Assembly (NCBI GenBank): GCA_023301025.1
Contig: JALZUR010000021.1
Location: 1,183 to 65,182, forward strand
Origin: Bdellovibrionales bacterium
GTDB taxonomy: Bacteria > Bdellovibrionota > Bdellovibrionia > Bdellovibrionales > UBA1609
Direction: 5' to 3'
Length of the DNA stretch: 64,000 nucleotides
Shown in pieces: positions 26,873 to 29,143 of this stretch. The position numbers and the translations under genes were made by a program. The first letter of the stretch is position 1. Each line of letters starts with the position of its first letter. The notes below the pieces were generated by a model. The model saw only the letters and a program-made list of their open reading frames with translations. It searched no databases and had not been told where the DNA came from.

Positions 26873-27253
26873 TTAAAGATCTTCGTCTTCGCTGTCACTT
26901 TCATTTTCAGATAAAAACTGTTCTAAGTCTTCAGAGTTTGAAGACTTAACTTTGAAAAGCCATCCATCTTCATTATTATCATCAAATAAAAGTTCAAAGT
27001 CAGATTGTACAGCCGTATTAATATCGACGATTTCGCCTTCAATAGGGGCGTATAGGTTTATTGGGCCGTCATCGGTTTCCACTTCCCCACAAATCTCTTC
27101 AGTGTTCACTTCATTTCCCTCTTCAGGAAGATCAACACCCCAAACTTCATTTATGTCTTCAAAGACCTCTTGTTTAACACCGATTGTAACAACATCTTCA
27201 TTAACTATAGCCCAAAGCTGATCATTGTATTCGATTATACTTTCATCTTCCAT
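26873..27253 (-). CDS. GcvH-fold (glycine cleavage H-like) protein lacking the lipoyl-lysine, with an acidic tail
   Basis: Aligns without gaps to the H-protein core: VTIGV...VDLPEEG...CGEVETDDGPINLYAPIEGEIVDIN...DGWLFKVK. The canonical ESVKA is ETDDG here. The C-terminus is SENESDSEDEDL. Confidence 0.75.
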   Translation of the reverse strand: MEDESIIEYNDQLWAIVNEDVVTIGVKQEVFEDINEVWGVDLPEEGNEVNTEEICGEVETDDGPINLYAPIEGEIVDINTAVQSDFELLFDDNNEDGWLFKVKSSNSEDLEQFLSENESDSEDEDL

Positions 27254-27302
27254 TCATAACCTCTTATTAAATAAAATTGATCTTAGGTTTAAGTTTAAAG
27301 TT

Positions 27303-28718
27303 TTAAACGTCGTAGTACAATTCAAATTCGTAAGGGGTTGGGCGAAGTTGAAGAGCTCTAACTTCATTTTCCCACTTTGTATTAAGCCACGCATTTAAAA
27401 GATCATCATCAAAAACTTCGCCTTTTTGTAAAAATCCACGGTCTTTATCAAGACTTTCTAATGACTCCCCTAAACTGGAAGGCACAGATTTAATACCCTC
27501 AGCTTCTTGCGGAGGAAGTCCGTAAATGTCTTTATCTAAAGGTTCTCCTGGTTCAATTTTATTCTCAATTCCATCAATACCTGCCATCAATAGAGCAGCA
27601 AAAGCAAGATAGACATTAGCTGTAGCATCTGGAGTTCTAAATTCTATGCGCTTAGCCTTTGGATTGTCTCCAGAATTTGGAATTCTTATGGCTGCTGATC
27701 TGTTTTTATAGCTGTAGGCAAGCTTAATAGGTGCTTCATAACCTGGCACAAGTCTTCTGTAAGAGTTTGTTGTTGGATTTGTAAAAGCGCATAAGGCTGG
27801 AGCATGTTTTATAATTCCACCGATAAAGTAAAGAGCCTCATCAGATAGACCAGCGTACTTTTCTCCAGCAAAAAGTGTATCTCCATTTTTCCATAAAGAC
27901 ATATGAGTGTGCATGCCTGATCCATTATCACCGTATATTGGTTTTGGCATAAAGGTCGCACTCTTTCCGTTTCTGTAAGCAACGTTTTTCACAACATATT
28001 TAAACCACATCATTTTATCAGCCATTTCTAAAAGCTCATCAAAACGAATATTGATCTCACCTTGGCCAGCTGAAGCTACCTCATGGTGGTGACGTTCAAC
28101 TTTTATATCAAGAGCATCTAACTCTAAAGATATTTCGGTTCTTAAGTTGTGTTGCGAGTCCACAGGCATTGCTGGAAAGTAACCACCTTTAGCTTTTGGT
28201 CGGTAGCCATGGTTGGCGCCATCTTCATCGCGACCAGAGTTCCAATGACCTTCGTCAGAATCTATAGAGTAAAAGGCTGAGTTTTCTTTTTGCTCAAAAC
28301 GTATGTCATCAAAAATAAAAAACTCTGCCTCTGGTCCAAAAAAAGCAGTGTCCGCAAGACCTGTAGCTTTTAAATAGTTCAAAGCTTTTTTTGCCACTTG
28401 TCTTGGATCACGGTTGTAAGGCTTAAAGGTTTCAGGGTTTACAATGTCACAAATTACTGAGTAGGTAGGAACTTCAGTGAAGGGGTCTATTTTTGTGGTT
28501 TTTAAGTCAGGAACCATCTTCATGTCAGAGTCTTCGATGGACTTCCAGCCTCTTATGGAGCTTCCATCAAAATTGAAGCCTTCTTCTAAAGTATCTTCAT
28601 TTATTTCTGTCATAGGAATTGTTAAGTGCTGCCAAGCCCCATGGAGATCTGAAAATTTCAAATCGATCATTAATATATCGTTCTCTTTTGCTTTTTTTAT
28701 AAACTCACTGGCTTTCAT
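27303..28718 (-). CDS. glnA: Glutamine synthetase type I
   Basis: [33 protein letters not shown] and [16 protein letters not shown]. The adenylylation-loop Tyr is retained ([10 protein letters not shown]). Confidence 0.97.
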
Positions 28719-28804
28719 ATTTTTAGAGTCCTTTGCTACTTTTTCTTATTGGTTTTTATCTGTCTTTTGATTTTTATTTATACTAATTGTTTTGTTCTTT
28801 GAGG

Positions 28805-29143
28805 CTAGATTGCTTTTTCATTTTTTTCGCCTGTTCTAATACGAATTGCTTCCTCTATAGGGTAAATAAAAATTTTCCCATCCCCTAAGGAGTTTGTTCT
28901 AGCTGAGTTAAGTATAGCCTCAGTTGCAAGCTCAACTAAAGCATCAGGGAGCACCATTTCAAGTTTTACTTTTGGCAGAAAATCTACAACATATTCAGCA
29001 TCTTGATAAATTTCTGTGTGGCCTCGTTGTTTTCCAAAGCCACGAACCTCAGATACTGTAACACCCTCAACCCCAACCTCAGAGAGGGCATCAATGACAT
29101 CATCTAACTTGTACGGCTTTATAATGCTCTCTATCTTCTTCAT
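28805..29143 (-). CDS. glnB: Nitrogen regulatory protein P-II
   Basis: [17 protein letters not shown]-loop [17 protein letters not shown] with the Tyr51 equivalent, and [19 protein letters not shown]. Confidence 0.95.

Follow-up and report, generated by a model that had tools for sequence, protein, structure and literature searches.

The window analyzed here, a stretch of 64,000 nucleotides from a Bdellovibrionales bacterium (contig JALZUR010000021.1), carries on its reverse strand a cluster of three genes, the last of which encodes a relative of the H-protein of the glycine cleavage system (GcvH) that lacks the lysine to which lipoate is attached. The first gene is glnB (28805..29143, - strand), encoding a PII signal protein of 112 aa that matches Pfam P-II with 107 bits and has kept Tyr51 in its T-loop. 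Next comes glnA (27303..28718, - strand), encoding a type I glutamine synthetase (GS) of 471 aa with Gln-synt_N and Gln-synt_C domains (TIGR00653, 670 bits) and ending in a TAA stop codon at 27303-27305. A YGLPP motif in GlnA, with its Tyr at residue 399, matches the adenylylation-site motif. This GS is closest to those of Bdellovibrionaceae and Bdellovibrionales, and is 67-68% identical to the GS of cultured Bdellovibrio, from which we assign the window to an uncultured member of this group. The third gene (26873..27253, - strand) runs from an ATG start to a TAA stop and encodes a protein of 126 aa that we call the H-like protein. A preliminary description of this DNA had placed glnB directly upstream of glnA; the Pfam and NCBIfam matches agree with it, and the two genes share a strand.

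The 126-aa open reading frame (ORF) matches Pfam GCV_H over residues 11-119 with 77.9 bits and E=7.9e-22 (cut-off 22.2), with no Lys at the tip of the hairpin that carries lipoate in H-proteins. Alignment by phmmer is ungapped over 105 residues of the Thermotoga maritima GcvH and 98 residues of the Escherichia coli GcvH, and the register of the lysine was taken from such alignments to the solved H-proteins 2KA7, 1ZKO and 3A7A. In the alignment to solved structures the segment gevetddgpinlyap lies over asiesvkaaadvyap of an H-protein, with ETDDGP opposite ESVKAA, and codon 62 (27068..27070), encoding Asp62, is at the position of the lipoyl-lysine. The gapless hairpin alignment and the Asp at this codon had both been claimed in the preliminary description, and both stand. 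The only Lys residues of the protein are K27, K101 and K103, so the stretch between residues 28 and 100 is free of lysine, again as first described; there is no Arg. The composition is strongly acidic, with 40 Asp and Glu residues (32%) set against three Lys and Arg together. The acidic tail noted at the outset forms the C-terminus, SENESDSEDEDL (26876..26911, - strand); it is probably disordered, as suggested by AlphaFold2 pLDDT values below 50 at residues 119-126.

The same protein falls short of both NCBIfam cut-offs for gcvH, scoring 78.2 against 117 for NF002270 and 69.1 against 115.85 for TIGR00527. Because the lipoyl-lysine is absent and the curated cut-offs are missed, the H-like protein should not be filed as GcvH, and it cannot act as the lipoate shuttle of the glycine cleavage system. 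The reported lack of gcvT and gcvP in the window held good in a Pfam scan of 20 window ORFs (18 of them of at least 300 aa) and in the gene table for approximately 17-37 kb.

The fold itself has been retained. An AlphaFold2 model calculated from 19 family sequences has a pLDDT of 82 and a pTM of 0.72. Strands run from residues 54 to 60 and from 63 to 68, placing residues 61-62 at the hairpin tip. The best matches of the model in the Protein Data Bank found with Foldseek are all H-proteins (TM 0.75-0.79, 25-32% identity; TM 0.78 to solved H-proteins); next in rank is the streptococcal GcvH-L, followed much more weakly by lipoyl and biotinyl domains. Canonical GcvH (1ZKO/2KA7, 3A7L and the bovine 3KLR) has the same fold and length, aligns without gaps at approximately 30% identity, and shares with the H-like protein an LP(E)xG stretch, a Y-x-P following the hairpin, a GW motif and the C-terminal helix. 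The H-like protein differs in lacking the lipoyl-lysine, in its ETDxGPxN hairpin, in being far more acidic, often with a poly-Asp/Glu tail, and in being encoded behind glnA and not near gcvT or gcvP.

The altered hairpin is a property of a whole family of proteins. A first homologue search returned 24 sequences of 42-100% identity, in all of which the hairpin reads CGE.ETD[DQS]GP.N.Y.P, and none of which has a hairpin Lys. When a profile was run against 1.84 billion cluster representatives and the best 150 were examined, 76 had Lys at the aligned tip position and 69 had none at or beside it; these 69 are mostly very acidic, and many bear long poly-Asp/Glu tails. A second profile search, in a set of 5.8 billion proteins, gave 603 matches at E<=1e-15. 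In the best 120 cluster representatives (90% identity), the tip of the hairpin and the two residues to either side of it are without exception free of Lys.

In place of the lipoyl hairpin E-S-V-K-A-A-S-D of H-proteins the family has the signature C-G-E-x-[ED]-T-[DE]-[QDES]-G-P-x-N-L-Y-S-P, which corresponds to residues 55-70 of the window protein (CGEVETDDGPINLYAP; 27044..27091, - strand) and is the most conserved stretch of the family. Column counts over the best 120 representatives give, along the first strand, Cys at residue 55 in 119, Gly56 in 119, Glu57 in 109, Glu or Asp at 59 in 114 and Thr60 in 116. At the tip there is Asp or Glu at 61 in 109 and Gln, Asp, Glu or Ser at 62 in 116, and Gly63 is found in all 120. 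Beyond it come Pro64 (107), Asn66 (112), Leu67 (110), Tyr68 (119), Ser69 (111) and Pro70 (119). Elsewhere, the column of K101 is Lys or Arg across the family. Asp and Glu make up 20-41% of residues, and lengths range from 110 to 177 aa, a spread arising mainly from poly-Asp/Glu tails up to approximately 50 residues longer than that of the window protein. The window protein belongs to the family by its CGEVETDDGPINLYAP hairpin, its Asp and Glu content of at least 20%, and the place of its gene in a SecA-SpoU/glnB-glnA-H block. One family-like protein of 110 aa (P0031) reads CGEIDTKDGATNLYSP, with a Lys one residue before the canonical tip; it is the sole such case seen.

Judged from these alignments, the loss of the lipoyl-lysine is a fixed trait of the family and not a one-off mutation. 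More than 60 related loci carry the H-like gene in intact form. The ratio dN/dS is 0.13 for L007 against L012, the only pair of loci with unsaturated dS; other pairs have dN of 0.10-0.32 with dS saturated. The pattern is clearly that expected of purifying selection. Where a source organism is stated it is one of the Bdellovibrionales, Bdellovibrionaceae or Pseudobdellovibrionaceae, with the single exception of 'Proteobacteria bacterium SG_bin7'. We are thus almost certainly dealing with a lysine-less paralogue family of the Bdellovibrionota that has retained the barrel-sandwich fold of GcvH. Database names, where given, are nearly all 'glycine cleavage system protein H', with two of 'hypothetical protein'.

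The arrangement of the genes in the window points to a single transcript. The glnB-to-glnA spacer (28719..28804, - strand) is 86 nt long, A-rich and unstructured (-0.5 kcal/mol, z=+2.1), and contains no terminator. The spacer of 49 nt between glnA and the H-like gene (27254..27302, - strand) likewise has no hairpin (-7.5 kcal/mol, z=-0.55), and an AAGAGG ribosome binding site (RBS) lies at 27260-27265, 6 nt ahead of the H-like ATG; gap, RBS and lack of a hairpin are all as originally reported. The only stable hairpin of the operon comes after the third gene. This is a stem-loop of approximately 19 bp (26805..26849, - strand), 24 nt past the H-like stop and between convergent genes, the convergent gene in the window being a protease gene. 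It has no U-run, and the 96 nt from 26790 to 26885 fold with -20.1 kcal/mol (z=-2.78); it is the probable end of the transcript. Since the H-like gene lies on the same strand as glnA, behind an unstructured spacer of 49 nt and with its own RBS, and since the only stable hairpin follows its stop codon, we consider co-transcription with glnBA likely. The claim that it is the third gene of a glnB-glnA operon is very probably right, given in addition the gaps of only 9-21 nt found in relatives and the terminator that directly follows the gene in B. bacteriovorus. A glnB-glnA-H transcript would mean that the H-like protein is made together with PII and GS.

Reading by eye, we find a candidate sigma-70-like promoter for glnB, TTGACT-N14-GATACC (29175..29200, - strand), that overlaps the ATG (29185) of a divergent SpoU-type methylase gene (29185-29745). 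The same elements with equal spacing are found, again by eye, upstream of glnB in three other loci (L098, L113 and L119), and this is likely to be the shared promoter of the operon. Consensus scans gave no convincing promoter between glnA and the H-like gene, with total matches below chance. For a sigma-54 promoter upstream of glnB or glnA, TGGCAC-N5-TTGC with two mismatches gave 43 matches against 34 expected, none of them rightly placed, and this candidate was set aside. A gene for an NtrC-type sigma-54 activator (receiver, AAA+ and Fis-type helix-turn-helix) is present at 1780-3297 (+ strand), approximately 24 kb from glnBA. An Rfam scan by E-value around the operon returned two sub-threshold chance matches only.

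We have examined how far the link to glnA extends among relatives. Loci were gathered by looking up exact proteins and by scanning genomes and, with an alignment of the hairpin alone, metagenomes; GlnA and GlnB were located by tblastn. De-duplication at 90% identity left 50 clusters, six of which have too little flanking sequence, giving 44 that are informative. The adjacency seen in the window recurs: glnA lies upstream of the H-like gene on the same strand and within 1 kb in 28 of the 44 clusters, and does not in the other 16. The refuting condition set in the preliminary description, absence of the adjacency from related genomes, is thus not borne out. The gap is mostly below 170 nt, and is 9-21 nt in at least seven lineages. 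Linkage is found in both deep subtypes of the family, with 20 adjacent against 12 not for the N-L-Y type and 11 against 4 for the D-[IL]-[YF] type, as well as at a more diverged member (P0026), and it persists at 33-45% protein identity. As a control, among 73 canonical gcvH loci with the Lys in place, gathered likewise, a close glnA was found within 8 kb at none, and two have only a GS-like gene of approximately 30% identity. In two loci (L008 and L009) glnA and the H-like gene are together and glnB is not in the cluster, which ties the H-like gene to glnA rather than to glnB.

The cultured Bdellovibrio bacteriovorus (CP169237.1) has the order SpoU-GGACT followed by glnB-glnA-H, with a gap of 21 nt between glnA and the H-like gene and an RBS reading GGAGAGG. 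Its H-like protein has the hairpin IGTLETDDGPLDIYSP, only one Lys (K48), and approximately 32 residues of acidic tail, and directly past the stop codon there is a canonical GC-rich terminator with a U-run.

Lysine-less proteins named 'glycine cleavage system protein H' are also present in Acidisphaera, Sulfitobacter, Janthinobacterium and Acidipropionibacterium (P0049, P0129, P0133 and P0154). Loss of the lipoyl-lysine in H-protein paralogues seems to be widespread, and we found no description of it in the literature searched. The lysine-less H-like genes of Sulfitobacter, Acidipropionibacterium and one further organism do not lie near glnA, and linkage to glnA is thus a particular feature of the Bdellovibrionota family. 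In Acidipropionibacterium jensenii (L140:5001-6694) the gene for the lysine-less GCV_H protein P0154 immediately precedes genes for an FHA-domain protein and a MerR (Rv1828-type) protein. We take this cluster to resemble the mycobacterial gcvH-garA-Rv1828 cluster, in which GarA controls glutamate metabolism. By that analogy, a dead H-protein would here be found, for a second time and independently, close to nitrogen and glutamate regulation.

We tentatively favor a reading in which the H-like protein is a non-lipoylatable paralogue, co-transcribed with glnBA, that acts by binding another protein through its remodeled acidic hairpin, the most probable partner being GS or PII. Conserved residues alternate along the hairpin, with C55, E57, E59 and D61 on one strand and P64, N66 and Y68 on the other. 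From the geometry of a beta-hairpin these should form one exposed acidic face. In true H-proteins the corresponding face presents the swinging arm to partner enzymes; here it would have been turned into a fixed docking epitope. Transcription would start at the sigma-70-type promoter upstream of glnB and end at the hairpin past the H-like gene, and the product may act as a small binding subunit or modulator. GS would be the likeliest partner because the H-like gene follows glnA even where glnB is not in the cluster, and PII the second candidate through analogy with its binding of a related biotinyl-carrier domain protein. The acidic tail might add electrostatic or cation-dependent tuning. The narrower claim that GS or PII is indeed the partner is possible but doubtful, and more doubtful still is the full form of the proposal, in which this 'pseudo-carrier' would be a new accessory subunit of nitrogen assimilation whose frozen acidic hairpin docks on GS (or PII) to modulate its activity, its use of metals or its state of modification.

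Several observations weigh against the favored reading. The whole block, SecA(-) SpoU(-) [GGACT(-)] / glnB(+) glnA(+) H(+) / SpoVR(-), is syntenic across the group (in the window the SecA gene is at 29902-32571), and the adjacency to glnA may in part be inherited synteny and not the result of selection for coupling. The pair glnB-glnA is missing from the otherwise intact block in five loci (L018, L100, L111, L118 and L134) in which the H-like gene is intact, starting 87-271 nt from a divergent GGACT or SpoU gene. Both subtypes of the family include such loci, so that at least two independent events are required to account for the absence. In L006, a close relative whose protein is approximately 80% identical, a segment encoding an HNH endonuclease lies between SpoU and the H-like gene. 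In further loci (L007/L012, L010/L011/L016, L092, L123 and L138) the H-like gene has moved elsewhere. A weak promoter match at 27405-27432, inside the 3' end of glnA, makes an internal promoter possible. The short same-strand gaps and the placement of the terminator argue for co-transcription, and not necessarily for shared function.

The loci lacking glnBA allow two readings: glnBA may have moved to another part of the genome, or the H-like protein may be of use in the absence of GS. If such genomes were without GS altogether, the role of the H-like protein would have to be independent of it. No glnA remnant upstream of the H-like gene in L005 or L006 was found by tblastn or by inspection of ORFs, and no alternative partner gene recurs among the neighbors at non-adjacent loci. 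Thus, of the original proposal that an H-protein scaffold had been recruited to a non-lipoyl role linked to nitrogen assimilation, the non-lipoylatable scaffold is upheld, and the link to nitrogen has been weakened by the synteny of the block and by the loci without glnBA.

These same observations lend themselves to the alternative that survives best, although we think it unlikely: a GS-independent polyanionic factor that buffers cations, polyamines or basic proteins, or that serves as a chaperone-like 'entropic bristle', riding on the nitrogen-regulated glnB promoter from an inherited position. It is consistent with the synteny of the entire block and with the retention of the H-like gene next to the divergent promoter region in the five loci without glnB-glnA and in the sixth with the HNH segment. 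The variable tail length, in members of 110-177 aa, also argues for bulk electrostatics over a specific tail motif. A bulk polyanion would nonetheless have no need of a defined fold bearing a hairpin motif of 16 residues that hardly varies. In several lineages glnA is only 9-21 nt away, which suggests tight co-expression, and the adjacency to glnA holds at 33-45% protein identity.

A role as a receptor for PII is a good deal less probable. The H-like barrel sandwich would be bound by the T-loop of PII in an effector-dependent manner, as is the biotinyl domain of BCCP, and would sequester PII or relay its signal. PII binds BCCP, a protein with a barrel-sandwich domain of the carrier type and of the related biotinyl/lipoyl fold, in both bacteria and plants (PMC5080355). 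The sharing of an operon with glnB in most loci, and the basic T-loop residues K38 and R40 of PII that could meet the acidic hairpin, would both suit such an interaction. Yet in L008 and L009, whose clusters do not include glnB, the H-like gene is still next to glnA, and the published assays used biotinylated BCCP (PMC5080355), whereas the H-like protein has no modifiable Lys. BCCP carries a biotinyl-lysine and belongs to acetyl-CoA carboxylase, and the H-like protein is related to it by fold class only, so the likeness is one of analogy.

The retained fold, with its ungapped alignment at approximately 30% identity to true H-proteins, might instead suggest a decoy that competes with the genuine H-protein for the P-, T- and L-proteins or for LipB/LplA, throttling glycine cleavage or lipoylation when glnBA is switched on. 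Glycine cleavage releases ammonia, which on general grounds makes a link to nitrogen conceivable. We regard this as very unlikely, since a decoy should keep the residues around the Lys, and the hairpin has instead been rewritten from ESVKAASD to ETDxGPxN and then frozen. In a look for genuine GcvH of the Bdellovibrionota, the named sources among the best Lys-containing profile matches were Micrococcaceae.

The near-invariant Cys55 (119/120) and Thr60 (116/120), on or beside the hairpin, could in principle make the protein a carrier modified at some other residue. This is highly improbable. E. coli GcvH also has a Cys seven residues before its Lys, and Ser or Thr is canonical in the ESVK motif; because GcvH has Cys and Ser/Thr at those places, the two residues are inherited features of the fold. 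There is no linked gene for a modifying enzyme, and the remaining Lys residues are not conserved, the column of K101 being Lys or Arg and B. bacteriovorus having only K48. That the gene is a decaying, functionless remnant of gcvH, as loss of the catalytic Lys and scores under the gcvH equivalog cut-offs might imply, is effectively refuted by intact ORFs in more than 60 loci, a dN/dS of 0.13, a new invariant hairpin motif, and a conserved RBS and terminator.

Other H-protein paralogues have been recruited outside glycine cleavage. GcvH-L of Streptococcus pyogenes and Staphylococcus aureus (5A35) is one, with a TM of 0.71 to our model. Its gene lies with those for SirTM, a macrodomain protein and LplA2. 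The H-like protein differs from it in lacking the Lys and in having no neighbor with a BPL_LplA_LipB, macro or sirtuin Pfam domain; PMC12440151 presents GcvH-L as a carrier protein for lipoic acid. According to PMC6067878, LbpA of sHdr sulfur oxidation is a GcvH-like lipoate-binding paralogue encoded with hdr-like genes, whose role was recognized through its gene neighborhood. The H-like protein has neither the Lys nor hdr-like neighbor genes. Two curated H-like families that are not GcvH do not include it: it scores 48.4 against a cut-off of 144.05 for the chlamydial not_gcvH family (TIGR03077), and 25.7 against 150 for GcvH_rel_desulf (NF045810).

Among small regulators that bind GS are the cyanobacterial IF7 and IF17 and the Methanosarcina sP26; IF7 and IF17 are basic, and these regulators are not known to be encoded in the glnA operon. 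A functional analogy to the H-like protein is possible, although the folds are unrelated and the H-like protein is extremely acidic. Our searches of the literature on GcvH in connection with GS, glnA/glnB, Bdellovibrio or non-lipoylated H-like proteins found no description of the lysine-less family. Within the H-protein family it forms a 'pseudo-carrier' branch that is restricted to one lineage and linked to the glnBA operon. Domain fusions offered no functional hint, as the multi-domain GCV_H proteins (FAD-oxidase/CCG, LplA, response regulator) belong to other branches. Two such proteins are P0039, of 1391 aa, which combines three GCV_H domains with FAD-oxidase, 4Fe-4S and CCG (Hdr-like) domains, and P0100, a GCV_H-LplA fusion of 510 aa.

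The GcvH label on the family is wrong, and because its members cannot carry lipoate, a metabolic reconstruction of Bdellovibrionota is in error wherever it counts them as GcvH. The family provides a clean case in which a cofactor-carrier fold, after losing the site for its cofactor, came to bear a new and fixed motif on its surface, inside the operon of a central nitrogen-assimilation enzyme. If the link to GS is true, the H-like protein would be a new kind of partner for GS or PII, in which a swinging-arm carrier domain has become a regulator, and would add a layer of GS control not described in other bacteria. If it is not real, there is still a function to be found for this conserved and abundant-looking polyanionic protein of predatory bacteria. 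With the same arrangement in the cultured and genetically tractable B. bacteriovorus, whether the protein regulates GS or PII is directly testable.

Elsewhere in the window, an arginase-family gene (53034-54056, - strand) and a gene for a biosynthetic-type arginine decarboxylase (59928-61835, - strand) suggest polyamine synthesis, which may matter should polyamines be bound by the polyanionic H-like protein. A gene at 44916-47459 (- strand) encodes an 847-aa fusion of a CheB methylesterase, a CheR methyltransferase and a C-terminal PAS domain. Finally, at 49330-52996 (+ strand) a citrate-synthase family gene is preceded, two genes upstream, by a PrpD/MmgE gene, indicating a possible methylcitrate cycle, and a second citrate-synthase family gene is located at 19746-20867 (+ strand).

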